Below, piece by piece: positions 1-39,482 of a stretch of DNA of 64,000 bases. Every line of letters starts with the position of its first letter. The stretch's first letter is position 1. Made by a program: the position numbers and the translations under genes. The notes under the pieces are model-generated. The model saw only the letters and a list, made by a program, of their open reading frames with translations. It did no database searches and had not been told where the DNA came from. Source of the stretch: Escherichia phage HP3; sequence record NC_041919.1. One strand, written 5' to 3'.

Positions 1-473
1 CCGCCGCCGCCGCCACCGCCGCCTGCAATAGCTCCGCCATTATTAATTCTTAGTCTCCCACCAATATCGTTTTGAATACAATGACCTCCAGCTGAACCAG
101 GACTATTGCTACCGCCATTACCGCCACGTCCATACATCGTTACGCCGTGTATATTCAACTGAACATATTCATTCGGTGTATCTCCGTACATGAAGAATAA
201 AGGAACATCTTTAGAATATGATACTAAATCACCTGTAATATTAAACACTATAGGTGCACTACCTGCCTCAAAACATCTATCTCGGAACCATTGACCATTG
301 AAGTTATGGTCTGCTCCAAGCGTGTGAATAATTTCTCGTGAGCGACCTGCAAATTGACTCATCCAGCAAGGAACACCCAATCTTAATTGACCAGCCGCTT
401 GACTCATCCAGCGCTGTCCTGTTTCATTTGCGGCTGAACTTCCAATCCAACCAGGAACACCAACTACTGCCAT
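1..473 (-). CDS. 38: gp38 receptor-recognising adhesin, T2/T6 type (N-terminal ~157 codons; gene runs off the left edge)
   Basis: Minus-strand ATG at 471-473 with GGAG upstream; translation [28 protein letters not shown]... ending in a poly-Gly run encoded by the GGC/GGT repeats at 1-30, as in glycine-rich motifs of T2-type gp38; lies directly after gene 37. Not in the ORF track because it is truncated. Confidence 0.8.
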
Positions 474-488
474 AATTTATACTCCAAA

Positions 489-503
489 GGGGGCATTTCC
501 CCC
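489..503 (-). other. stem-loop between gene 37 stop and gene 38 start
   Basis: GGGGG-aaatg-CCCCC on the minus strand followed by TTTGGAG (gene 38 Shine-Dalgarno). Confidence 0.4.
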
Positions 504-509
504 TTGTTG

Positions 510-3497
510 TTAGAATTTAAAATATTTACTAATTTTGCGAGCAATTTTAGTAAAGAAAGGAGTTTTCAATTCTTTAATTTCTTCACTCATTTCCTGAATA
601 GCCTTAATTAAAAGAGCATTCACAGCAGAGTTAGAAATTGTCAGAACATCAGATCCATCAACTTCAACTTTAGATACAGCTTCCGGTAATTCCTTTTCAA
701 GGTCCTGAGCAATAATACCAACTTCACGTTTAATAACACTACGGTCTTTAATAGACTTAACTTTATCGTAAATATAAACTTTCAGTCGACATACTTTTTC
801 AAGTGCTCCGTTTTCTAGCTCTTTTTTATTAATCTTAAGACGACCATCGGAACGAATATACACATCGTTAAAGTTACCATTACCAGGAGAATAGAAAGTA
901 CCGTCGTAATGAAATTCAAATACCGCGTTAGGGTGTCCAGCCGCTGGCGATGCCTCCGCAGATCCAACACGAATAATTGCTTGCCCCCAATTGTTAGGGA
1001 CACGACGAATACCAAGATCGACGGCAGTTACAAACCCTTGATTGGTGATTACACTTCTTCCTTTGAGAATCGGATAATAACAATCCTGTGAAACATAACC
1101 ATGATCGACGAATATTGGTGCTTCTACTCGCCATTGGTTGCCCCAATCACCCGGTTGTCTAGCAATCCATCCAGAACCGTTAATGTGTACACGATCGCGG
1201 TTAACGTTAACCATTGCGATATTTTGTGGATTTAGCGAAATCTCACCATTGTTTGTGATATGTACTGCCGCCTGAGTAGCATAGCTATAAAATGCTAGCG
1301 AATTATCAGCACCACCCTTACCAATATACCAGTTACCACTCCCGTCTACGTCACCACGAATATGCAAAGCATTACCAGCAGTTGTTGATAATACAATAGA
1401 ATCACCCGGACGTTTAATAATCAATCTACCTTCGGATTCAATTTCACCAAAAAATTTAGTCTTAATTGCACCAGTCGCTAAAGTACGTTCAGTGGAAAAA
1501 TGAACGCCTTTGCTGTCTTCTAACTGAATAATGTTATCGCGCGCATTATTACTATCACCCCAATGATTAAACCGGAAATAATCACGTGATTGCTTACCAC
1601 CCGCTTCAAACGTCAGCGTACCTTTACTTAAATTAACATCACCGCTAAAGGTAGCAGCAAGAGAATCACGTTCTAATTTTAAAACGTTAGCACCACTAGT
1701 ACCACCTAAAGTAACATCACCAGTTCTCAATTCATAACGGAAAGGTCTATTTGTATTATAGTTTCCATTTTGATCATCTTCGTTGGTGGAAAGAATATAA
1801 AGATTCTCTCCATAAGTACGGAAAATTGTACCAAAATTTCCGGCATACATACGGAATGCATTAGATGAGCGAAATTTAACTTCTGTTTTAAAAGTGGTAG
1901 TGTTATTAAGGTTAACAGTAGAGTTAAAATTGGTAGGAGCACCGAAGTTAACTGCGCCATTAAAATCTTGTTGAGCTGTCCATGTGTGGCGACCATCTTC
2001 AAGAACAACACGGCGGACTGTGCAAGTTCTATTTCCAGAATTACCGAACACACGAACGACAAAATAACGGTAGTTTGTCTGGGATACAGTACCGCGCCAA
2101 ACCTGAACAGTACGCCCTGTGCTAGTGTGTTCGCTAGGACCAACGGAAAACATAACCAGGTTTCCGTCAATCGTCCCCCAATCCATATTTGCTGGCATAT
2201 TCTTTATTTTGTTCAAAGGAACACTAAACATACTACCAGGGACAAAATCAAAGGTTTGCCAATCTAGCTCCGCTAATTGAGTTTTAATACCACCCATACC
2301 CAAAGTAATTGGCAAAGAGTAAGATGTATATACTTCGTTCCATGTACCCCACGCGCCACCGGTATATGCACGCTCAAAAATACGATCGCGAGTAGTTGCA
2401 CCCGTTCCGGCAGTAGTAAATTTTTGGAAAATAGCACCACCAGAAGCACGCTGTTTAACTTCCAGCAAACCAACAATAACGGCTGGTAAACCTTCACCAG
2501 TAGGACAGTTAATAACGGCATCAGTGCCTAAAATGTTATATAACCCAGGAGTTTTAAAATCATTCAGATCTCCATCATAGAAAGTCGCTGGTGTGCCATG
2601 ACCAACCTGCTTCCATTCCTCCCACTTAGGTGCACTAGCATCCCATGCAGCAGCGAGACAACGAGTATAAACCATACCCATGCGGGTAGTATAACGCTGA
2701 GTTCTCGTGTATAAACCACCTTCAAATATTTCTAAAAATCCTTGTGCGGCTGATCCTTCTTCTGGATAATGGCGATCAAATGATGCGATTGCGCTTGAAC
2801 TGTTTCGCCATAAGCCACAATGTTCTAATTCTCCCAAGCTATCAAGGTCAATCGTTTGTGAAAGTGGACGAGTTGACGCTTGAACATTACGCCACACACC
2901 CCATGGACCATTGACGCCATTCCATTTAGCAGATAAGGAACGAATATAGACGTTACCAGATCTTACAGTATAACGCTGAGTGCCAGCAAATTGGCCGGCC
3001 ACAAACACTTCTAGTACACCTACGGCATTTTCTTCTGGGAATTTATTTGCTGGTTGCGCATTTGTTGAAGTAGATTTCGACCAAACACCAAGATATTCTT
3101 CAATGGGCCCATACGTATCTAAATTAGCATCAGTAGGTAATTCGCCATTATTTTTTATAAATGTTGTGCTATTGACATTTATGTCAGATGGAGTTAAGGT
3201 AATGTCCTTTGACCCATCAAAAGATATACCATTAATTTTCCTAGGTGTTTGCAATTTAGTAGCTGTGCTAGAATTTCCAATTAAAGTTCCAGTTATATTT
3301 TCTGTAACCTCTAAAGACCCATTTATAGTTCCTCCATATTTTAAACCTAATTCTATAACACTACCTGAGTCATCTTTTGTGAAAATTGTTTTATCTTTTA
3401 AGTTTATAGCCAATTCACCTTCGGCTAATACTGAAGCAGCAGGACGTTGACCTGCAGTTTTGCTTCTTTTAAATTGTATTTGTTTTAAAGTAGCCAT
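510..3497 (-). CDS. 37: gp37 long tail fibre distal subunit, with C-terminal intramolecular-chaperone (self-cleaving) domain
   Basis: 995 aa; N-terminus [13 protein letters not shown]...[15 protein letters not shown] matches T4 gp37; C-terminal ~112 aa carry an S-D-x-R-L-K motif ([22 protein letters not shown]) typical of peptidase S74 type chaperone domains; follows gene 36. Confidence 0.9.
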
Positions 3498-3505
3498 AAG
3501 TCCTC

Positions 3506-4156
3506 TTAATAATAGCCGAAATCTTGAACAGAATCCTTAATTACGATTTGGTCAAATCGTGGAACGTGTGAAGGTTGAGATGCAGGATTCTGTGAAAAAA
3601 GGTTTGGCGCAGTTAAATTTCCTGTCATAGTGTCTCCAGAGCGTAATACCCTAGAGTTTGCATTTGCTGTAACAGTATTTATTGCTCCATCAACATAATC
3701 TTTGCGAGTAACATCAGATGCTGCGGAAGGAGTAGATGTAACAGTTACCGATGGAGCCGTTACAGCCCTGGTAAATGTTGTCAAACCTTCTGGCGTAATA
3801 GTAATTTGTCCAGTAGTGATTTCACTACCTGCTGGTCTAAAACTAATACCGCCAGAAGAGCCACCAACTACAAGAGTATTACCAGTGCCGCCACCAGAAC
3901 GAATTCGGATGGGGGTTTCATTATTACTTAATTGAAGATAACTATTTACCCCGTAATTAATAGTAATTGGACCGGTGTAAGTACCACCATTAGCTTTAGA
4001 AACGAAATCGTTATCAGCTGCCTGCGGTTTATTATATTCTGAATATATTTTAAATGATTTGTAGAGTACATCGTCACCGGCTGAATTCAATGGAAAATTT
4101 CCTTGATGCCAAATGACAGATCCACCTACAGTTGAACCTACTTTTAAATCAGCCAT
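3506..4156 (-). CDS. 36: gp36 long tail fibre distal connector
   Basis: 216 aa; [24 protein letters not shown]... and C-terminus ...[18 protein letters not shown] match T4 gp36; synteny 35-36-37. Confidence 0.9.
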
Positions 4157-4179
4157 TATATGCCCCTTTATTTTAATAT

Positions 4180-4187
4180 TATTTATA
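4180..4187 (-). promoter_or_regulatory. late promoter for gene 36
   Basis: TATAAATA on the minus strand 24 nt upstream of the gene 36 ATG, right after the gene 35 terminator. Confidence 0.6.
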
Positions 4188-4190
4188 AAG

Positions 4191-4213
4191 AAAAAGGGAA
4201 CCCGAAGGCTCCC
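4191..4213 (-). terminator. rho-independent terminator after gene 35
   Basis: Minus strand GGGAGCC-ttcg-GGTTCCC followed by TTTTTCTTT. Confidence 0.7.
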
Positions 4214-4218
4214 TCAGT

Positions 4219-5334
4219 TTAAACTTCTCTAAATTCTTGCCCAAACACTTTGCCAGTTTTAGAAGAGGCTTGTGTAGGAAGTACCATTATATCTGGAGGT
4301 GAAGCCGATTCGCAGACATAATTAACGCGAATACCGTTGACGCCAAATTCGGCAGGTTTTGAAATGCCGCCATTTCTTGATACTTCAGAAAAGCTTAAAT
4401 TTCTCATGCCGCCTTGACCTGCTTGGGCAGTTCTTTGTGCATATATCGTAAATCCTACTGCATTTTCAGGAACAACTACATAATCTTCTTTTAATTCCCA
4501 AGACCCAGCTTGCCCAGTAAACTCAGCTTGGGTCGAGGAAATATATCCATTTGATGCATCATAAAAACGAATAGATATATTTGTAGTTCCAAGATCAAGT
4601 AAATCAGCATCAGCATATAGTTGTGCTTTAAGATAAAGAACATCACCAGGAATTAAATTGTAGTCAGAAAGTTTACTTATAGCAGCTGAAGTTGGCAATC
4701 GCGCAATTTCATTATTAGTTCCTCCAACCGCAGACATAAATTGCTCAACGCTTTCGTATGTTCTTTTAGGAAATCCTGTAGCTCCGACGTCTTCTAAACT
4801 ATCAAATACAACATCTAAAATAGTTTGATAATCATCTGTGCTTTTTCTATTACTTAGTTTAACATGCTCTAATGCAATAGCTCTTTTAGAAGAAGTATAA
4901 AAAGCAGCATATGATACGTCAAATCTTGACAATACTGAATCTGATGGAAAAACTGAAGTTCCTGCTCCCCTTAACCAAGATACCACTTCAGGAGGAAAAT
5001 TAACCTTTCCGCTAGTTAATATAGCAGCAAGTCTATTGTTTGACAAAGAATTCATGAAACTGACAAAAGCAGCTGATGTAGTATTATTTGAAGCAGAAAA
5101 AGCATATGACTTGCTATCAACTAATGCTCCCGTAGAAGGGTCAAAAACTCTTAAATGAAGACCTGCACTAAATGTTTGATTTCCAACGGGATTATCCTGA
5201 AATTTAACATATGGCCCCGCAGTAGAAAGCGGGCAAGAACCCGCTATGCTTATTTTATATCTTACTGAATTGCTTTCCGATAAAAATGGCGTTTGGACAT
5301 ATCCTTGTCCAAACTCTGCCATAAATTTTTCCAT
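4219..5334 (-). CDS. 35: gp35 long tail fibre hinge (knee) protein
   Basis: 371 aa; MEKFMAEFGQGYVQTPFLSESNSVRYKISIAGSCPL... matches T4 gp35 (372 aa). Confidence 0.9.
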   Translation of the reverse strand: MEKFMAEFGQGYVQTPFLSESNSVRYKISIAGSCPLSTAGPYVKFQDNPVGNQTFSAGLHLRVFDPSTGALVDSKSYAFSASNNTTSAAFVSFMNSLSNNRLAAILTSGKVNFPPEVVSWLRGAGTSVFPSDSVLSRFDVSYAAFYTSSKRAIALEHVKLSNRKSTDDYQTILDVVFDSLEDVGATGFPKRTYESVEQFMSAVGGTNNEIARLPTSAAISKLSDYNLIPGDVLYLKAQLYADADLLDLGTTNISIRFYDASNGYISSTQAEFTGQAGSWELKEDYVVVPENAVGFTIYAQRTAQAGQGGMRNLSFSEVSRNGGISKPAEFGVNGIRVNYVCESASPPDIMVLPTQASSKTGKVFGQEFREV

Positions 5335-5342
5335 AATACCTC

Positions 5343-8300
5343 TTATTCAACCCATTCAAATTTAACAGTTTTATTCACTGGGTCAGGAATAATGCGAACA
5401 TTACCAATTCGTAAGAAATCACGAATAGTAAGATTACCTATTATTCCATTATCAGATGGGATCGCTCCTATATCTGAAGGTTGAGGAGGGTTACCTCCGT
5501 CAAATACCTGAACAAAACTTGACCAAGAGTTTTTGGTTTTCTGCCATGTACGTGTCCAGCGAGTGGTACGTGCTTCTGGGGTCGTTGGATAAGTAATCCA
5601 ATCTTGGTAAAGCGAATCAAGTGTGTTACCAAACTGAGTCAATGTACCAGGAGATTTAACTTCTTCGCCACGTTCTAAGTATGGAAGCCCAGTCACTTCA
5701 TTAGTTTTTTCAACCATTTTAAAATAACCCGGGAACTGGTTATAAGTGGCTGAATCATTAATATCGATTGACCAGAATCCTACAGTATCAGATGTCGGCG
5801 CGCGGGTATATAAATCAGAGGTTTTAGTACCCTGAGAACGAATTCTCGAGTTAACAGTCAAACCACCCGAACTTATAGTAGCACCTTTTGCAATGATTAA
5901 GCTTTCACCAATCGTTACTTGGCCAGATGCATTATTAATAGCTAAAGGACGCAATCCATTAAATACGCCAGTTTGATCACCCGATGCAGTAAGCATAAAA
6001 TTCGTTACTGATCCATCATTGCGAACAATGAAACCATAATTTCCGTTAATAGCACGGAAAGCATTTGCGCTTCGAGAAATAATTTCACCAGTTGCAGTGA
6101 CTGAATTACCAAATGTTGCTACACCATTTGCATTCAATGTTCCTGAAGCATTAACATTTATCGGTGTTACTGTACCGTTGATATTAAATGTTATATTTCC
6201 AGCTTTATTACGCTGAGAATAAAAATGACTAGACGTTTCATCACTAACTTCAAATACGGTAGAACGTGTTGTGTCTGATTCCCCACTAAATTGATTTCCC
6301 CACACTCTGACTGTCATCGTTTGAGCCGGGTTTGTTCCAGTTTGAGGTCCTTTCTCAAAAATCAGACGAGTTGCCGTTCCAGTATTAGAAATAGTTAATG
6401 TACTATTTGCTGAAACTGATCCACCGAATGTAGCAGTACTAGATGATACAAGAGGGGCACTCAGATTCGTTTGTTGGGTTAAGGTTAGTGAACCATTAAC
6501 TGTTTGTGCAATGTCCCTACGAATGAACTGGAGCGAATCTAGACCATCTAATAAATTACTATCTACGGCTTTTGCTTTTAATGGCAAATAATTTGCTAAT
6601 ACGCGATTTAATTCATATGGTGATACTGCATAACCATTTTTCTCATATGATTCTAATGGCTGTGTTGAACCAGCTGTATCATTACCAACGAATGTAATTG
6701 AACCAGACGAAGTTTTAACAAAACCTCTTATCGCAGTAGTCGCTGCCCAAGTAGGTTCACTCTGCACAATCCATTTTAAATTTTTTGGAGATACAGCAGT
6801 ATTTGCTGACGTTCCAGCTACAGTTTCAGACCGAGTTGCAACTTTAATAACGCCTTCCTGTGCTTCAGTAGATTTAGTACCTAAAAGCTTTTTAGGAGTT
6901 ATTAAAACATTATCTAATGTTCCTGCAGCAGCTTCAACTTGTGTAGCTACACGAAGTGTACCACGCTGTGTCTCATTTGCTTCAAGAATATTAAGGGTAT
7001 AATGGTCCCAGAGAGTTCCTGATTCAACTAATCCAGATAGAGCAACAACAGAAGTACGATCAGTACTATTAAATCTGGTTTTAATTTTTAATGGTGTAGA
7101 GATACGAGTATCGTCGACGCCTGCGTCGAATTCAACCTGTGTAGCAATTTCAGCTATACCACTTAAACTTTCAGTTGCTCTACGGTCATTTAAAGTTTTA
7201 GGAGTGACTGCACGAGTATAATCAGTTCCTGTATTAACTTCACTTTGCGTAGCAATTTCAATTAAACCAATTCTTCCATCAGTTGATGTCTTTTTATGTA
7301 ACGTTTCTGGTGTTACAACCGCATTTGCCCATCCTTCTTGGCTTTGTCCAGCAATTACTTCACTTTCAACTGCTAAAATTACTGCGCCTTGTTGCGTTGG
7401 AGTAGCTTTATACTGATCCAAAGCTTTAGGTGAAACAACTAAATTATTAGTGTTTTTATTATAAACATTCGTACCATTTAATTCACGACTAGAAGCTGGA
7501 GTAGCTCCTGCAGTAGATACAAAAGTTACAATACCCGATAATGTTTCAGAACCTTGACGAGCTTGAAGCTTTTTAGGAGTGATGATTGTAGTATCATCGA
7601 TACCTGTATTAGTTTCCTGCTGCGTAGCAATTTCAGCAACACCTCTGCGAGTTTCTGTAGCAGTTCTTTCATTCAGCTTTTTAGGAGTGATGATAAGGTC
7701 ATCTGCAAAAGAGAATGTAGTGTTCTGATTTACTTGAGCAGTAGTTGCTATTCTTGCAATACCTCTGCGAGTTTCAGTAGCAGTACGATTAGCTAACGTT
7801 TCTGGAGTAATTGCTAATTCTTTTTGTGGAGAATTTTCTAAATCAGCATTTGCTTGAGCTTGCGTAGCTAAAGCAATTACGCCTAATCTTGCTCTAGTAG
7901 AAGCATTTAAAGAGTCTACTCTTTCTACAGTTGGAACGTTTTGCTGTACAACCCAGTATTTTCCATCAGAATCTTCTATATAAGCAAGTTGCAAAACTGG
8001 TACATAATTAGTTTCACCATTAAAAACTAATTCTTGAACTGTTACCCATTCAGCTTCAGGCGGATATTCTGAACGTTTTGGGAATTGCAGCAATTGAACT
8101 GAAGAAGCAATTTTATCTTCACCAGCAGCTTTGATTTTAACTGTTTGTCCTTTTCTCATGTAATTCATGGAAATTTTAACAGTATCACCAACAGAAATAT
8201 CAGTCGGAAGCTGAAGTTCAATTGTTTGGGTTGTTCCATTATTCGCGCCAAATACCATGACTTCTTCATTTGGACGAATATTTGAATTAGTTGTTATAAT

Positions 8301-32055: not shown

Positions 32056-32321
32056 TGTTTGTTGTTCACACTATTTATGAAAATGAAGGTAATACTACAC
32101 GTGATTACGGTCACGTAAATCAATTTTTTAGATGCAATCCAGAATTCCGAGCTCAAAAAGACGAACGAATTTTTAAAAAATGTGTAGAGCAAGGTTTCAT
32201 TTACGTCAAGCACTGGATGCAAGGAAATAAAGTTAGAACCACATATCATAAGTCTTTGACTGAGCTTAATGATGAATTGATTTATAATAGAGCTGTAAAC
32301 CAAACTCTGAAGGATGAATAA
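32055..32321 (+). CDS. hypothetical protein
   Basis: 88 aa, coupled between neighbours. Confidence 0.5.
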   Translation: MFVVHTIYENEGNTTRDYGHVNQFFRCNPEFRAQKDERIFKKCVEQGFIYVKHWMQGNKVRTTYHKSLTELNDELIYNRAVNQTLKDE

Positions 32322-33784
32322 TGATTCTTAAAATTCTGAACGAAATAGCATCTATTGGTTCAACTAAGCAGAAGCAAGCAATTCTTGAAAAGAATAAAGA
32401 TAATGAATTGCTTAAACGAGTATATCGTCTGACTTATTCTCGTGGGTTACAGTATTATATCAAGAAATGGCCTAAACCGGGTATTGCTACCCAGAGTTTT
32501 GGAATGTTGACTCTTACCGATATGCTTGACTTCATTGAATTCACGTTAGCTACTCGGAAATTGACTGGAAATGCTGCAATTGAGGAATTAACTGGATATA
32601 TTACTGACGGTAAAAAAGATGATGTTGAAGTTTTGCGTCGGGTGATGATGCGAGACCTTGAATGCGGTGCTTCAGTATCTATTGCAAACAAAGTTTGGCC
32701 AGGTTTAATTCCTGAACAACCTCAAATGCTTGCAAGTTCTTATGATGAAAAAGGCATTAATAAGAATATCAAATTTCCAGCCTTTGCCCAGTTAAAAGCT
32801 GATGGAGCTCGGTGTTTTGCTGAAGTTAGAGGTGATGAATTAGATGATGTTCGTCTTTTATCACGAGCTGGTAATGAATATCTAGGATTAGATCTTCTTA
32901 AGGAAGAGTTAATCAAAATGACTGCAGAAGCTCGCCAGATTCATCCAGAAGGTGTGTTAATTGATGGCGAATTGGTATACCATGAGCAAGTTGAAAAGGA
33001 GCCAGAAGGCCTAGATTTTCTTTTTGATGCTTATCCTGAAATTAGTAAAGCTAAAGAATTCGCCGAAGTAGCTGAATCACGTACTGCATCTAATGGCATC
33101 GCCAATAAATCTTTAAAGGGAACCATTTCTGAAAAAGAAGCACAATGCATGAAGTTTCAGGTCTGGGATTATGTCCCGTTGGTAGAAATATACGGTCTTC
33201 CTGCATTTCGTTTGAAATATGATGTACGTTTTTCTAAACTAGAACAAATGACATCAGGCTATGATAAAGTAATTTTAATTGAAAACCAGGTAGTAAATAA
33301 CCTAGATGAAGCTAAGGTAATTTATAAAAAGTATATTGACCAAGGTCTTGAAGGTATTATTCTCAAAAATATCGATGGATTATGGGAAAATGCTCGTTCA
33401 AAAAATCTTTATAAATTTAAAGAAGTAATTGATGTTGATTTAAAAATTGTAGGAATTTATCCTCACCGTAAAGACCCTACTAAAGCGGGTGGATTTATTC
33501 TTGAATCAGAGTGTGGAAAAATTAAGGTAAATGCTGGTTCAGGCTTAAAAGACAAAGCCGGCGTAAAATCGCATGAACTTGACCGTACTCGCATTATGGA
33601 AAACCAAAATTATTATATTGGAAAAATTCTAGAGTGCGAATGCAACGGTTGGTTAAAATCTGATGGCCGCACTGATTACGTTAAATTATTTCTTCCGATT
33701 GCGATTCGTTTACGTGAAGATAAAACTAAAGCTAATACATTCGAGGATGTATTTGGTGATTTTCATGAGGTAACTGGTTTATGA
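32321..33784 (+). CDS. 30: ATP-dependent DNA ligase
   Basis: 487 aa, same length as T4 DNA ligase; MILKILNEIASIGSTKQKQAILEKNKDNELLKRVYRLTYSRGLQYYIKKW...; KADGAR adenylation motif. Confidence 0.95.
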   Translation: MILKILNEIASIGSTKQKQAILEKNKDNELLKRVYRLTYSRGLQYYIKKWPKPGIATQSFGMLTLTDMLDFIEFTLATRKLTGNAAIEELTGYITDGKKDDVEVLRRVMMRDLECGASVSIANKVWPGLIPEQPQMLASSYDEKGINKNIKFPAFAQLKADGARCFAEVRGDELDDVRLLSRAGNEYLGLDLLKEELIKMTAEARQIHPEGVLIDGELVYHEQVEKEPEGLDFLFDAYPEISKAKEFAEVAESRTASNGIANKSLKGTISEKEAQCMKFQVWDYVPLVEIYGLPAFRLKYDVRFSKLEQMTSGYDKVILIENQVVNNLDEAKVIYKKYIDQGLEGIILKNIDGLWENARSKNLYKFKEVIDVDLKIVGIYPHRKDPTKAGGFILESECGKIKVNAGSGLKDKAGVKSHELDRTRIMENQNYYIGKILECECNGWLKSDGRTDYVKLFLPIAIRLREDKTKANTFEDVFGDFHEVTGL

Positions 33785-33969
33785 AAGCTTACTTAGAAAC
33801 AATTGTCATTGCTCAAAAAGAAGGTGGAGATGTTTCTACTTCTGTATCACAAGTCATTCTCGAATTTGTAGATGCATACGCTTATAATAAATTTACAGAA
33901 ACATTTGATGCCTATGAAAAAGGACCAAAGTTTGAAATATATCGTACTCTCTTACCACTAGATTACTAA
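33781..33969 (+). CDS. hypothetical protein
   Basis: 62 aa, overlaps ligase stop. Confidence 0.45.
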   Translation: MKAYLETIVIAQKEGGDVSTSVSQVILEFVDAYAYNKFTETFDAYEKGPKFEIYRTLLPLDY

Positions 33970-33985
33970 AGGCCTTCGGGCCTTT
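33968..33985 (+). terminator. rho-independent terminator
   Basis: AAAGGCC-ttcg-GGCCTTT hairpin with T-rich tail. Confidence 0.55.
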
Positions 33986-33990
33986 AATTT

Positions 33991-33998
33991 TATAAATA
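33991..33998 (+). promoter_or_regulatory. late promoter for alt
   Basis: Exact TATAAATA, 24 nt upstream of the alt ATG, with GAGAGG Shine-Dalgarno between. Confidence 0.65.
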
Positions 33999-34021
33999 GA
34001 ATAAACACTAGAGAGGCTATG

Positions 34022-36076
34022 ATGGAACTTATTACAGAATTATTTGACGAAGATACTACTCTTCCGATTACAAACTTAAATCCAAAGAAGAAAATACCGC
34101 AAATTTTTTCAGTTCATGTTGATGATGCAATTGAACAACCAGGCTTTCGTTTATGTACCTATACATCTGGAGGTGATACTAATCGCGATTTAAAAATGGG
34201 CGATAAAATGATGCATATTGTTCCTTTTACATTAACTGCTAAAGGTTCAATTGCTAAATTAAAAGGTCTTGGTCCAAGCCCAATTAATTATATCAATTCA
34301 GTTTTTACTGTTGCAATGCAAACAATGCGTCAGTATAAAATTGATGCTTGTATGCTTCGTATTCTTAAGTCTAAAACCGCTGGTCAAGCTCGACAAATTC
34401 AAGTTATTGCTGATAGACTTATCCGTAGTCGTTCAGGTGGCAGATACGTCCTTCTTAAGGAACTCTGGGATTATGATAAAAAGTATGCATATATTCTTAT
34501 ACATCGCAAAAATGTATCACTAGAAGACATTCCAGGAGTTCCGGAAATTAGTACCGAGCTCTTTACTAAAGTTGAATCGAAGGTCGGTGATGTTTATATC
34601 AATAAAGATACCGGAGCTCAAGTAACCAAAAATGAGGCAATTGCAGCATCTATTGCACAAGAAAATGATAAACGTTCTGACCAAGCTGTAATCGTTAAAG
34701 TTAAAATTTCCCGTAGAGCAATTGCACAAAGTCAGTCATTGGAATCTTCTAGATTTGAAACACCGATGTTTCAAAAATTTGAGGCTTCAGCGGCAGAATT
34801 AAATAAACCAGCGGACGCGCCTTTAATTTCTGATTCTAATGAATTAACGGTAATTTCTACTTCAGGATTTGCACTAGAGAATGCTCTTAGCAGTGTTACA
34901 GCTGGGATGGCATTCAGAGAAGCTTCTATAATTCCTGAAGATAAAGAATCCATTATTAATGCAGAAATAAAAAATAAAGCTTTAGAAAAATTACGAAAAG
35001 AATCTATTACTTCAATAAAAACTTTAGAAACTATTGCTTCTATCGTCGATGATACTTTAGAAAAATATAAAGGTGCTTGGTTTGAAAGAAATATTAACAA
35101 ACATTCGCATTTAAATCAAGATGCTGCGAATGAGTTAGTACAAAATTCTTGGAATGCAATAAAAACAAAGATTATTCGAAGAGAATTGCGTGGATATGCT
35201 CTTACCGCTGGATGGTCACTACATCCTATAGTCGAAAATAAAGATTCATCTAAATACACACCAGCACAAAAACGCGGAATTCGTGAATACGTAGGTTCAG
35301 GATATGTAGACATAAATAATGCTCTTTTGGGATTATATAATCCAGATGAGCGTACAAGTATTTTGACAGCATCTGACATAGAAAAAGCTATTGATAATTT
35401 AGATTCAGCCTTTAAAAATGGTGATCGATTGCCAAAAGGTATTACTTTATATCGTTCACAGCGAATGTTACCTTCAATATATGAAGCATTGGTAAAAAAT
35501 CGAGTTTTTTATTTTAGAAATTTTGTATCAACATCATTATATCCAAACATTTTTGGTACTTGGATGACTGATTCAGCTGTTGGTGTTTTACCAGATGAAA
35601 AGCGTCTAAACATTTCTATCGATAAAAATGATGAAGGGCTTGTTAATTCTAGCGATAATTTAGTCGGAATTGGATGGGTTATTACTGGGGCTGATAAAGT
35701 CAATGTTGTTTTACCCGGTGGAAGTTTAGCGCCTTCAAATGAAATGGAAGTTATTTTGCCACGTGGATTAATGGTCAAAGTTAATAAAATAACTGATGCA
35801 TCTTACAATGATGGAACAGTTAAAACTAACAACAAGCTTATTCAAGCTGAAGTTATGACCACGGAAGAGCTCACCGAATCGGTAATCTATGACGGAGACC
35901 ATTTAATGGAAACTGGTGAATTGGTTGCAATGACAGGTGATATTGAAGTAGAAGACAGAGTTGACTTTGCATCATTTGTTTCATCAAATGTTAAACAGAA
36001 AGTAGAATCATCTCTTGGAATTATTGCGTCTTGTATAGATATTGCAAACATGCCTTACAAGTTCGTTCAAGGATAA
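34022..36076 (+). CDS. alt: Alt ADP-ribosyltransferase (capsid-packaged, injected)
   Basis: 684 aa from second ATG; MELITELFDEDTTLPITNL...; C-terminal motifs LYRSQR, FVSTSLYP, EVILPRG consistent with an R-S-E catalytic triad. Confidence 0.9.
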   Translation: MELITELFDEDTTLPITNLNPKKKIPQIFSVHVDDAIEQPGFRLCTYTSGGDTNRDLKMGDKMMHIVPFTLTAKGSIAKLKGLGPSPINYINSVFTVAMQTMRQYKIDACMLRILKSKTAGQARQIQVIADRLIRSRSGGRYVLLKELWDYDKKYAYILIHRKNVSLEDIPGVPEISTELFTKVESKVGDVYINKDTGAQVTKNEAIAASIAQENDKRSDQAVIVKVKISRRAIAQSQSLESSRFETPMFQKFEASAAELNKPADAPLISDSNELTVISTSGFALENALSSVTAGMAFREASIIPEDKESIINAEIKNKALEKLRKESITSIKTLETIASIVDDTLEKYKGAWFERNINKHSHLNQDAANELVQNSWNAIKTKIIRRELRGYALTAGWSLHPIVENKDSSKYTPAQKRGIREYVGSGYVDINNALLGLYNPDERTSILTASDIEKAIDNLDSAFKNGDRLPKGITLYRSQRMLPSIYEALVKNRVFYFRNFVSTSLYPNIFGTWMTDSAVGVLPDEKRLNISIDKNDEGLVNSSDNLVGIGWVITGADKVNVVLPGGSLAPSNEMEVILPRGLMVKVNKITDASYNDGTVKTNNKLIQAEVMTTEELTESVIYDGDHLMETGELVAMTGDIEVEDRVDFASFVSSNVKQKVESSLGIIASCIDIANMPYKFVQG

Positions 36077-36079
36077 ATC

Positions 36080-38137
36080 ATGGAACTTATTACAGAATTA
36101 TTTGACGGCGCTTCGGCGCCGGTTGTTAACTTAAATCCTAAGCATAAAATACCACAAATTTTTGCTATTCAAGCCGGCGAAGAAAGCGTGCTTCCTGGAT
36201 TTAGATTTTGTACATACACCTCTGGTGGTGATACGAATAAAAACGTTAAGCCAGGCGATAAAATGATGCATATCGTAATGATAGGTGTTAATGAGAAACT
36301 ATCATTAGTTAAGCTTAAAAACTTGGGTGGAAATCCAATTGGTGTCATTAATGCCGTTTTTGATACTGCTCTTCAAACAATGAAACAGTATAAAATCGAC
36401 GCATGCCTATTCCGCGTACTAAAAAGTAAAACAAATGGCGCAGCTCGTCAAATGCAAGTTATTGCTGACCGTTTAGTACGTACTAAAGGAGCAGGTCGAT
36501 ATGTTCTTTTAAAGGAAATCTGGGACTATGATAAGAAATATGCATATATTATGGTTTACCGTAAAAATGCCAATTTAGAAGACATTCCAGGTGTACCTCC
36601 TATTTCAACTGAGTTATTCACAAAAGTTGAATCAAAGGTCGGTGATGTTTATGTAGACGTTAAAACAGGAAATGCTGTTCCTAAAGCTGTTGCTGTTGCT
36701 GCTTCTATTGCTTTAGAAAATGATAAGCGCACGGACCAAGCTGTTATTCAGAAAACTAAAATTAGTCGTCGATTAGCAGCACAAGCTCAATATTCTACTG
36801 TTGATGCTTCACTTCAGGGTGATAGCTTCGCTGCTAAGAAATATCAAGAGTTTGAATCTAAAGTTCCGGTATATAAAGCAGAAGGACCAATGAACTCTGG
36901 CGTTATTCAGATTGGTTCAAACTTCAGCAAAGGAGCTATCGGTGGTATGAGAAGTGCTTCTCGTTTTAAATCTAACGATTATGAACTAGAAAGCTTCCGA
37001 AATCATATTGCATTAGCCCATGCACGTTTACGTGATCCATCTATCAAGTTGCAGAGCGATATAACATATCAAGGTTCTCAAGAATATTTAAAGAATAAAG
37101 AATTCTTTGATTATAAAACTGATAAAATTTTAAGCGATCTTGCTGATATTAATATTTCTAATAGCTTTGATGTTATTAAGAAAATTATTAATGATTTAGT
37201 TAAAGGTTCTAAAACCACACCAGATGAAAAGACAGCTATTATTCAATTTGTAATGAATGGCATTTATAAATTGATTAATGAATCTGCTGCCCAGGCATAT
37301 GAATACGCAAGCACCGAAGTAGCTCCAAAAGGACTGACTCAGGCTGAATCTGATGTAATTGAAGATTATTGTGCAGATTCATATGTTGAAATGAACTCGT
37401 TCCTTTTGGGTAAACCAGATTCTACCCGTGAAGAATACATGGAACGAGCTATTAAGCACATCGAGACGTTAGATTCTGCCTTTGCCAAAGGATCAGTTCT
37501 TCCTCCAGGAACTACACTTTACCGTGGGCAAGAAGTTACCTTTAAAACTTTGCGTCATAACATTGAAAATAAAATGTTCTATTTCAAGAACTTCGTATCC
37601 ACATCGCTTAAACCAAATATCTTCGGTGAGCATGGTAAAAACTATATGGCTCTAGATGATTCCGGCGCAGTATTTTCTGGTGAAGGAGAAGGTTCCGTTG
37701 ATGCAGAAGATTTGATGCATATGGGTAGTCATTCTACATATGCTAATGAAGATGCAGAAACTAGCGTGGGTATGGTAATTAAAGGAGCTGAGCGAATCAA
37801 AGTTATCGTTCCAGGTCATTTATCAGGATTTCCATCAGAAGCTGAAGTTATTCTACCACGTGGAATTTTACTGAAGATTAATAAAGTAAGTACGTACTTT
37901 ATGAAAGAAACTGCTTATAACAAGTATCTAATCGAAGGTACAATCGTTCCTCCTTCTGAACAATTAGAAGAATCAGTATATGATGGAGACCATCTAATGG
38001 AAACTGGTGAAGTTCGTCCAATGGCTGGATTTAATCAATTCCTTGTAGAAGAATCAAAAGAAGAGGAAAATGAAGTTTCTCAAATCTTGACTTCTTTGGT
38101 TAACATCAACGGAATGTCTAAAAAGTTCAAAATGTAG
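36080..38137 (+). CDS. second Alt-like ADP-ribosyltransferase paralog
   Basis: 685 aa; N-terminal ~220 aa closely similar to Alt (MELITELFDGASAPVVNL...), divergent middle, conserved C-terminal motifs LYRGQE, FVSTSLKP, EVILPRG; starts 4 nt after alt stop. Confidence 0.8.
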   Translation: MELITELFDGASAPVVNLNPKHKIPQIFAIQAGEESVLPGFRFCTYTSGGDTNKNVKPGDKMMHIVMIGVNEKLSLVKLKNLGGNPIGVINAVFDTALQTMKQYKIDACLFRVLKSKTNGAARQMQVIADRLVRTKGAGRYVLLKEIWDYDKKYAYIMVYRKNANLEDIPGVPPISTELFTKVESKVGDVYVDVKTGNAVPKAVAVAASIALENDKRTDQAVIQKTKISRRLAAQAQYSTVDASLQGDSFAAKKYQEFESKVPVYKAEGPMNSGVIQIGSNFSKGAIGGMRSASRFKSNDYELESFRNHIALAHARLRDPSIKLQSDITYQGSQEYLKNKEFFDYKTDKILSDLADINISNSFDVIKKIINDLVKGSKTTPDEKTAIIQFVMNGIYKLINESAAQAYEYASTEVAPKGLTQAESDVIEDYCADSYVEMNSFLLGKPDSTREEYMERAIKHIETLDSAFAKGSVLPPGTTLYRGQEVTFKTLRHNIENKMFYFKNFVSTSLKPNIFGEHGKNYMALDDSGAVFSGEGEGSVDAEDLMHMGSHSTYANEDAETSVGMVIKGAERIKVIVPGHLSGFPSEAEVILPRGILLKINKVSTYFMKETAYNKYLIEGTIVPPSEQLEESVYDGDHLMETGEVRPMAGFNQFLVEESKEEENEVSQILTSLVNINGMSKKFKM

Positions 38138-38166
38138 TTTACAAGTTCCTTATGTTGTGTTATAGT
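38137..38166 (+). promoter_or_regulatory. T4-type early promoter (copy B of repeated promoter/leader cassette)
   Basis: GTTTAC 38137-38142, 18 nt spacer, TGTTATAGT -10; near-identical to 22359-22412. Confidence 0.55.
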
Positions 38167-38197
38167 AGTCTTACTGACATAACATGAGGAACACAAA

Positions 38198-38488
38198 ATG
38201 AAATCTTCTTTGCGCTTTTTAGGTCAAGAACTTGTAGTTGAAGGCGTTATTCCTGCTGATAATGCTTTTAATGAAGCAGTTTACGATGAATTTATTAAAA
38301 TTTTTGGAACAGATAAAAAGTTCGGAATTTTTCCTTCTGAAAATTTTTCAAAGCCAGAACAGACTGAAAGCATTTTCCAAGGTGTAGTAACAGGTAAATT
38401 TGAGTCAGAAGCTCCGGTAAAAATTGAAGTTTATATTGAAGACAGTTTAGTTGCTTCAGTTGCTGCTTTTATTTCATTCCGTAAATAA
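38198..38488 (+). CDS. hypothetical protein
   Basis: 96 aa; first ORF after the early promoter cassette. Confidence 0.5.
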   Translation: MKSSLRFLGQELVVEGVIPADNAFNEAVYDEFIKIFGTDKKFGIFPSENFSKPEQTESIFQGVVTGKFESEAPVKIEVYIEDSLVASVAAFISFRK

Positions 38489-38493
38489 AAATA

Positions 38494-38511
38494 TGGGGAC
38501 CGAAAGGTCCC
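38494..38511. terminator. bidirectional rho-independent terminator between convergent ORF 38198 and gene 54
   Basis: GGGGACC-gaaa-GGTCCCC hairpin; T-rich on the minus-strand side, moderately T-rich on the plus side. Confidence 0.7.
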
Positions 38512-38516
38512 CATTG

Positions 38517-39482
38517 TTATATTGCTCCTAATATTTTACTTTGCGAATTGACAATTCCTGTCATAGTATTAATGTTTGAAATGCTTCCTGCAGTTCCACC
38601 TAATCTACTGAGTCGTGAAAGCGAATTAGATAGTCCAGTAACACCTCCACTATTTCCGAGAACGCTTTGAATACCATTTATAGCAGCAGATTCAAGCCAT
38701 TCAAGCGCAGCTTGCCTATCAACTGCTCCAGCCTGCATGACTCTATATGCAAAAGTAACATCAAATGTAGTTATTTGGTTATCTCCATCATATGATAACT
38801 CAGGAGCGCTCACTGACACTGGAATGCATCCGGTGAACATTACCGCAGTATGAGGTAATCCATTGCGAGAATGAAGATTAACCTGAATATCTGCCTCGAC
38901 ATCTTGTGGCAAAGCACGCAGTCCAGTTACTGGGTCTTGAACAGCGTTAACCCAGTCTTGCATTGCACGATAGTTACAAGCTTCTGAATCCATTCTAAAT
39001 GAAATAACCAAAGGGTCTAATTCTCTCCCAGTTATACGAATATTAGGAGAGTTGTAGTTCCAGTCAGTTTCATAGGATAATCTATTCTCTGGCATTTTTA
39101 CAGAGTATATCATCAATCCAGATGAGTTATATGCCATGTTAAAGAAGTCAATTAAATATGTACCAACTGTAAATGAGCCTAATAAACTTTGAACTGTACG
39201 TTGACTCATGGCACCAATAAGATATTTACTAACCCCTGATTTTCTTATCAGTTTTTGTGTGCCAGCAGTAATTAGCGTGGTAATTCCCTGATTAATATCG
39301 CCTTGAGACAATCCTAACCAGTCTGAATTTAGACCCAAGTTATTATAAGAAAAGTTGCTAATTGAACTTATCAACGAAGAGCTTTTAGTTGATGGAGTTG
39401 TTGCAAAAACGCAGCTAAACATATTATTACGTTGGAAATCTGCGTTTATTGCTTGATTATTAAATTCCTCTAAAGAATACAT
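38517..39482 (-). CDS. 54: gp54 baseplate tail-tube initiator
   Basis: 321 aa; synteny 29-48-54; recognisable T4 gp54 sequence. Confidence 0.9.
   Translation of the reverse strand: MYSLEEFNNQAINADFQRNNMFSCVFATTPSTKSSSLISSISNFSYNNLGLNSDWLGLSQGDINQGITTLITAGTQKLIRKSGVSKYLIGAMSQRTVQSLLGSFTVGTYLIDFFNMAYNSSGLMIYSVKMPENRLSYETDWNYNSPNIRITGRELDPLVISFRMDSEACNYRAMQDWVNAVQDPVTGLRALPQDVEADIQVNLHSRNGLPHTAVMFTGCIPVSVSAPELSYDGDNQITTFDVTFAYRVMQAGAVDRQAALEWLESAAINGIQSVLGNSGGVTGLSNSLSRLSRLGGTAGSISNINTMTGIVNSQSKILGAI

Follow-up and report, generated by a model that had tools for sequence, protein, structure and literature searches.

This study concerns alt2, the second of two tandem genes for Alt-type ADP-ribosyltransferases (ARTs) in Escherichia phage HP3 (sequence record NC_041919.1), whose described relatives include the ARTs of phage T4. 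Among these, ModA and ModB are proteins of about 200 amino acids (aa) that are encoded elsewhere in the genome and have neither the N-terminal module nor the propeptides of Alt. Both belong, as phage R-S-E ARTs, to the Alt/VIP2 clade and act on host proteins of transcription and translation; unlike Alt, they are made after infection and are not packaged (PMC5512222). T4 Alt is trimmed by the prohead protease gp21 at ITE-6 and LTE-619, as mapped by mass spectrometry (PMC5694885), and the mature protein of 68.2 kDa is present in about 40 copies per head (PMC5694885, PMC9026906). Additional alt-like sequences next to alt have been noted before. Specifically, in the T4 record the small genes alt.-1 and alt.-2 are said to stem from an old duplication of the beginning of alt, and Nolan et al. 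(2006) listed alt.-1/alt.-2, together with open reading frames (ORFs) of phages RB49 and 44RR, as paralogous duplications of alt; ORF187c of Aeromonas phage 44RR is a full-length alt duplicate (Nolan et al. 2006).

The window analysed here is the whole stretch of 64,000 nucleotides (nt) from HP3, which is 100% identical to the record of Escherichia phage HP3.1 (OK275722) and collinear with the T4-like Tequatrovirus phages. In this window, alt2 is an intact, selectively maintained, old Alt paralog that lies in a tandem array between ligase/alt.1 and alt.-3/gene 54 of Tevenvirinae. As a member of the Alt family that is annotated in many genomes yet uncharacterised, it is no new kind of system. 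We propose, with a probability of roughly 0.55, that the alt2 product (Alt2) is made late, packaged, trimmed by gp21 and injected, and that it acts as a second arginine-specific ART with a target range different from that of the alt1 product (Alt1).

Domain organisation and catalytic residues of alt2

The two genes, their signals and their parts have the following positions in the window.

33991-33998, + strand: TATAAATA, core of a T4-type late promoter, 24 nt ahead of the start of alt1
34022-36076, + strand: alt1, the T4 Alt ortholog, 684 aa counted from MELITE (an in-frame ATG at 34019 adds one Met, giving 685 aa)
Within the alt1 product: propeptide, aa 1-6; N-terminal module, aa 7-238; middle, aa 239-403; ART domain, up to LTE619; C-terminal propeptide, aa 620-684
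36069-36073, + strand: ribosome-binding site of alt2, AAGGA, within the last alt1 codons and 6 nt before the ATG
36080-38137, + strand: alt2, full-length second Alt paralog, 685 aa, starting 3 nt (ATC) after alt1
36080-36097, + strand: alt2 aa 1-6, MELITE, predicted N-terminal propeptide (gp21 cut after Glu6)
36098-36793, + strand: alt2 aa 7-238, conserved N-terminal alpha/beta module, presumed to target the head core
36794-37315, + strand: alt2 aa 239-412, divergent all-helical middle (helices predicted, model confidence about 90)
37316-37972, + strand: alt2 aa 413-631, ART catalytic domain, ending at LEE631 (PF03496 at aa 413-620)
37523-37525, 37598-37606, 37838-37840 and 37844-37846, + strand: alt2 catalytic codons for R482, S507-T508-S509, E587 and E589, respectively
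37973-38134, + strand: alt2 aa 632-685, predicted acidic C-terminal propeptide of 54 aa, isoelectric point (pI) 4.6 (cut after Glu631)

Both products match the Pfam family PF03496 (ADPrib_exo_Tox) well above its gathering cut-off of 23.4 bits, alt1 with 123.4 bits (E 9e-36) and alt2 with 72.3 bits (E 4e-20). Both also match PHROG 802 ("Alt-like RNA polymerase ADP-ribosyltransferase"; E 1e-262 for alt1), which in alt2 covers aa 1-685 (E 2e-255). Additionally, alt2 aligns end to end with 60 Alt-family members, through the N-terminal module, the middle, the ART domain and the C-terminal tail. The motifs LYRSQR, FVSTSLYP and EMEVILPRG of alt1 have their counterparts in LYRGQE, FVSTSLKP and EAEVILPRG of alt2, and alt2 keeps all catalytic residues. 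Specifically, R482, S507, E587 and E589 of alt2 are invariant among the 61 aligned Alt-family proteins, as are Y430, D465 and P593-R594-G595, and R482, the first Ser of S-T-S and E587-A-E589 make up the Arg / Ser / E-x-E pattern of arginine-specific ARTs. In a phmmer alignment, the YR and E-M-E of alt1 line up with YR and E-Y-E in CdtA, a component of a C. difficile toxin.

The AlphaFold2 model of alt2, with a predicted local distance difference test (pLDDT) score of 82.7 and a predicted template modelling (pTM) score of 0.72, gives the protein an ART fold. Its modelled C-terminal domain matches Vis, Certhrax, C3bot, CdtA and VIP2 with a probability of 1.00 in a Foldseek search against the PDB (E 3e-7 to 4e-4, target-normalised TM-score at most 0.67, identity 13-20%). 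These C3-like and binary toxins, C2-I included, resemble alt2 in the catalytic fold and in the R / STS / (E/Q)xE residues; yet they are secreted bacterial proteins that act on eukaryotic targets and have no counterpart of the N-terminal or middle domain of Alt. A sequence search of the PDB found no Alt-family structure, and NCBIfam has no model for alt1 or alt2. The Pfam entry PF26846 is precomputed on all of the family matches. A match of the middle region to CesA (Pfam E 0.022; PDB 1xou E 0.36) lies below the cut-offs and was rejected as chance.

The alt1 product is 98.2% identical to T4 Alt (tblastn) and 41% identical to the alt2 product (BLASTP, E 5e-157). Along the MAFFT alignment, identity between alt1 and alt2 is 67% over aa 1-238, 9% over aa 239-412, 31% over the ART domain (aa 413-631) and 36% over aa 632-685; when the two middle regions are aligned alone, BLASTP gives no significant match (E 1.4). 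Alt2 resembles T4 Alt in its full-length PHROG 802 match, PF03496 match, equal length, MELITE start, L-x-E site, R / STS / ExE residues, locus and probable transcription unit, but differs from it in sequence (41% identity overall, with 9% in the middle and 31% in the ART domain) and in having no exact late promoter of its own. Downstream of S-T-S, aa 518-556 (37631-37747) of alt2 form an acidic insertion of about 40 residues that is wholly different from the matching segment of alt1. Residues 518-529 and 534-539 have a pLDDT below 50 in the predicted model, and the insertion is a candidate target-recognition loop.

The initial annotation of this DNA had described two ORFs of about 685 aa with a 3-nt gap and a common MELITELFD start, both encoding Alt-type ADP-ribosyltransferases with closely similar first ~220 residues, almost unrelated middle regions and C-terminal Arg / Ser-Thr-Ser / Glu motifs. 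This description holds. The ORFs lie on the + strand, encode 684 and 685 aa and are separated by ATC, the motifs are present as quoted there, the family assignment is supported by the PF03496 matches of both products, and the similarity at the N-terminus and the divergence of the middle are borne out by the identities and the BLASTP result given above.

Expression and predicted head delivery

The late promoter core TATAAATA at 33991-33998 is the sole exact copy on the + strand from there to 44778. No terminator-like hairpin lies between 33986 and 38493, the first such site downstream of the late promoter being at 38493-38514, and a search for a MotA-box middle promoter before alt2 found none in a usable position. 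With the exact late promoter only at the first gene and no terminator between the genes, late co-transcription of alt1 and alt2 is the simplest reading. The ribosome-binding site of alt2 inside the last alt1 codons suggests that translation of the two genes would be coupled as well; the seven genomes that were compared all have the same 3-nt spacer, ATC. The initial annotation had assigned a late promoter of its own (33991-33998) to the first gene only, which is confirmed for the exact core; a one-mismatch copy, TATAGATA, precedes alt2 at 36034-36041, 38 nt before its start.

Two predicted gp21 cleavage sites frame the mature part of Alt2. As a reference, residues 7-619 of alt1 predict a mass of 68.2 kDa, equal to the published mass of mature T4 Alt. 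At the level of the motif, the N-terminus of alt2, MELITE followed by L, is identical to the ITE-6 site of T4 Alt, and LEE-631, followed by SVYDGDHLMETGE, aligns with LTE-619. In the family alignment these positions are strongly conserved: L or I is found at position 4 in 55 of 61 proteins and at position 629 in 54, Glu at position 6 in 59 and at position 631 in 60. In the AlphaFold2 model, both sites fall in segments with a pLDDT below 50 (residues 1-8 and 629-636), a position that fits protease-accessible linkers, as expected of cleavage sites. Cleavage at both would leave a mature Alt2 of 625 aa, 69.1 kDa and pI 7.3. The N-terminus had earlier been called "packaging-like", a notion that is strengthened by the retention of both gp21 motifs in the alt2 sequence.

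The following course of events is proposed. The alt2 gene would be transcribed late on the alt1 mRNA and translated in a coupled manner, and Alt2 would be built into the prohead core via the N-module and the propeptides that it has in common with Alt1. Prohead protease gp21 would then cut Alt2 after Glu6 and Glu631, yielding a protein of about 69 kDa, which would leave the head together with the DNA and mono-ADP-ribosylate host proteins at arginine. Its target range would most likely differ from that of Alt1, because the helical middle and the variable ART loops of alt2 are unrelated to those of alt1 and form a separate lineage that is conserved across genera. T4 thrives on laboratory hosts without alt2, which hints at a conditional role, in host takeover or in counter-defence.

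Prevalence, selection and modular evolution of the Alt array

Full-length alt2 DNA (at least 80% coverage, with identity of at least 94.6%) is present in 400 of the 496 matching phage records, including T6, RB7, RB14 and AR1, and an alt2 ortholog with at least 80% amino-acid identity in 401 records; the 90%-identity protein cluster of alt2 has 772 members. The idea that alt2 is unique to this genome was therefore rejected, since the same pair occurs in hundreds of genomes and cannot be put down to chance. Many records already name both genes "Alt-like RNA polymerase ADP-ribosyltransferase" or alt_1/alt_2, and the record of phage RB14 calls its full-length gene "alt.-2". Annotation is inconsistent, however: OK275722 labels both alt genes merely "hypothetical protein" or "Phage protein", whereas RefSeq relatives carry the name "Alt-like RNA polymerase ADP-ribosyltransferase". 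The initial annotation had named, among the points that would speak against it, missing catalytic residues in the second ORF, which does not apply, and the pair being common in a described phage group with a known identical role. Of the latter, the first half holds: in Tequatrovirus the pair is common and already annotated, Dhakavirus has three copies, and the duplication was noted in 2006. No role, identical or other, has been assigned to the second gene. Of the picture drawn by the initial annotation, the Alt-family ARTs, the conserved N-module, the divergent middle and late co-transcription as the simplest reading all stand.

An intact ORF of 685 codons is found in all seven genomes examined. 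In the 21 pairs formed by these genomes, the ratio of nonsynonymous to synonymous substitution rates (dN/dS, Nei-Gojobori) of alt2 is 0.036-0.059, with dS of 0.10-0.34. When each is compared with the window by region, dN/dS is 0-0.015 in the N-module, 0.06-0.11 in the middle and 0.03-0.06 in the ART domain. Alt2, its divergent middle included, is under functional constraint in the form of strong purifying selection.

The stretch that T4 has lost, and the features that flank the alt pair, have the following positions.

36419-36427, + strand: 9-bp direct repeat CTAAAAAGT, left copy, at the left end of the T4 deletion
38118-38126, + strand: 9-bp direct repeat CTAAAAAGT, right copy, at the right end of the T4 deletion
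32321-33784, + strand: DNA ligase (gene 30)
33781-33969, + strand: alt.1 homolog, an ORF of 62 aa in the position of T4 alt.1 (Pfam PF24647, "Phage blade protein", E 2e-29)
33967-33986, + strand: intrinsic-terminator-like hairpin, TAAAGGCC TTCG GGCCTTTA followed by a T-run, which ends the upstream early transcription unit
38138-38166, + strand: sigma-70 or T4-early-like promoter, by consensus match only, between the alt2 stop, which it follows immediately, and alt.-3 (TTTACA, 17 nt, TATAGT, with TG)
38198-38488, + strand: alt.-3 homolog, 96 aa, in the position of T4 alt.-3 (Pfam DUF5498, E 1e-64), the last gene before the terminator
38493-38514: bidirectional hairpin terminator between alt.-3 (+) and the convergent gene 54 (-)

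T4 is continuous with the window over 33700-36427 and 38118-38600, and the stretch between the two CTAAAAAGT copies is missing, which amounts to 1,699 bp from repeat to repeat. T4 alt.-1 (94.6% amino-acid identity) and alt.-2 (98.4%) together correspond to codons 1-116 of alt2 and occupy the same place downstream of alt; this remnant also carries a frameshift near codon 55/56. In line with this, PHROGs 23015 and 15247, which derive from such small ORFs, match alt2 aa 1-56 (E 2e-40) and aa 62-117 (E 3e-38), respectively. About 96 records match only bases 1-348 of alt2, all with the deletion end-point of T4, and this shared end-point is consistent with a single deletion event rather than with repeated decay. 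By this alignment, alt.-1 and alt.-2 are what a deletion has left of a full-length paralog, and not a partial duplication of alt.

On the other side of the pair, the stop codon of the alt.1 homolog leads straight into the terminator hairpin, which is followed by the abutting late promoter of alt. The terminator upstream of alt is conserved in five of six T4-like genomes (Nolan 2006). For the downstream neighbour, mutants of T4 Alt.-3 with a C-terminal extension escape the CmdTAC defence system (PMC11618068).

Comparison with Dhakavirus shows how the array varies between genera. Phage QL01 carries three tandem Alt genes (694, 681 and 707 aa), 3 nt (ATA) apart, at the same locus (364-6624 of the QL01 extract). 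The last copy, gp198 of JS10/QL01, is the closest relative of alt2 outside Tequatrovirus. In QL01 it is 48% identical to alt2 overall, with 44% in the middle, 51% in the ART domain and 65% in the tail, and with only 44% in the N-module, compared with 67% between the N-modules of alt2 and alt1. The alt2 middle is 43-47% identical to the JS10/QL01-type Alt of Dhakavirus, versus 8-9% to alt1. Within one genome, N-modules are 67-89% alike. Since N-modules are more similar within a genome than between orthologs, the delivery module goes with the phage, and the effector part with the paralog lineage. The split between alt1 and alt2 is placed before the split between Tequatrovirus and Dhakavirus.

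The first QL01 copy, gp200, is 94% identical to the T6-type Alt1 in the ART domain and 64% in the middle, but just 46% over the N-terminal 238 aa; the contrast between 94% and 46% suggests that the effector module has recently passed from one genus to another and been joined to a resident N-module. The genes compared lie at 1904-3997 of the T6 extract (T6 Alt1) and 364-2448 of the QL01 extract (gp200). In the middle copy, gp199, E-x-E is present, and simple patterns for Arg/S-T-S and for the C-terminal cleavage site found no match. Alt1 of Tequatrovirus itself occurs as two alleles with identical N-modules and with 31% identity in the middle and 62% in the ART domain; counted by DNA match to the middle region, 174 records have the T4 type and 321 the T6 type. 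Many Alt-family members match alt2 in the N-module and the ART domain only, without the middle, and the family as a whole is compact, with 112 of 1.84 billion representatives when clustered at 50% identity. These comparisons suggest an architecture in which each phage has its resident N-terminal module, which presumably suits the core of its own head, and in which this module is joined to exchangeable effector modules of old, distinct lineages.

Against predicted viral structures, Foldseek matched the model of alt2 aa 1-415 (36080-37324) to large uncharacterised phage proteins (E 1e-5 to 1e-3) of Dickeya phage RC-2014, Erwinia phage phiEa2809, Shigella phage MK-13, Vibrio phages Kuja and VP-1 and Agrobacterium phage Atu_ph07, one of which has a Zeta-toxin domain. 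As modelled, the fold of the Alt N-terminus may serve more generally for delivery via the head, fused to other cargos as well.

Weighing the explanations and their implications

Several points weigh against the proposal that Alt2 is an injected ART with targets of its own. A different target is argued from sequence divergence alone, and the divergence of the middle and of the ART loops speaks neither for nor against RNA polymerase alpha as the target. LC-MS/MS (tandem mass spectrometry after liquid chromatography) of virions of phage SH7, which carries both genes and whose virion proteome was the one consulted, detected the first Alt with 2 peptides at 3% coverage but no product of the alt2 ortholog, in shallow data in which just 13 structural proteins were found. 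The TATAGATA copy at 36034-36041 leaves room for some independent transcription of alt2. About one fifth of Tequatrovirus records, T4 among them, have no alt2, so that the gene is dispensable. The searchable literature yielded no paper on the function of a full-length second Alt.

Alt2 might instead be a redundant back-up or dosage copy, packaged and active on the main target of Alt1 (RNA polymerase alpha Arg265) as well as on its secondary ones, in which case its middle would be a drifting linker. The common family, the predicted ExE arginine specificity and the N- and C-terminal processing motifs of the two proteins would suit such a copy, as would the facts that T4 manages without alt2 and that Alt itself is non-essential. 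We nevertheless consider redundancy unlikely, because the middle is under purifying selection and resembles its Dhakavirus ortholog far more than alt1, and the ART domains of alt1 and alt2 are so dissimilar at 31% identity; redundancy would also hardly account for two or three distinct lineages being maintained next to one another in different genera. A further explanation, to which we give slightly less weight, is that Alt2, though active as an ART, does not reach the host with the virion, being made late and acting in the infected cell or being degraded in the prohead core. The SH7 proteomics, which detected the first Alt only, and the lack of an exact late promoter at alt2 agree with it. 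However, no part of alt2 is more constrained than its N-terminal module, which tracks the resident phage rather than the effector lineage, both gp21 motifs are kept and near-invariant in the family, as expected of a head-targeted protein, and in the SH7 data even Alt1 was seen by two peptides among 13 structural proteins. That alt2 is a non-functional duplicate on its way to the T4-like state is highly improbable: T4 and about 96 other records do hold only the 348-nt remnant, but the remnants have one common end-point, the ORF is intact in all seven genomes, full-length DNA matches number about 400, no catalytic residue is lost, and a dN/dS of about 0.04, with dS up to 0.34, led us to reject a pseudogene or decaying duplicate.

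The injection of Alt2 as a second ART with targets of its own, which we favour, leads to a broader picture that we put forward tentatively, as one that may well not hold in full. It is possible that most T-even phages inject two (Tequatrovirus) or three (Dhakavirus) different capsid-delivered ARTs, assembled from resident head-targeting and exchangeable effector modules, that Alt2 has a target that Alt1 does not hit, and that T4 is a natural alt2 knock-out. As alt2 is already widely annotated and the duplication was noted in 2006, what is gained is a sharper hypothesis and not a discovery. If it is true, the Alt2 target may be, for example, a defence, toxin-antitoxin or translation factor, and a second injected activity would have been missed since Alt biology was done in T4.

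Knowledge of phage-injected ADP-ribosylation comes entirely from T4, which is a deletion variant at this locus, whereas about four fifths of its sequenced relatives keep alt2. T4, as a natural alt2 deletion mutant, and T6 or HP3.1 therefore make up a ready-made genetic comparison. Additionally, a resident delivery module with a swappable effector module would be relevant to engineering phage capsids that deliver proteins. Should Alt2 be injected and act on targets of its own, more protein modification would take place in the first minute of T-even takeover or counter-defence than the T4 model implies.

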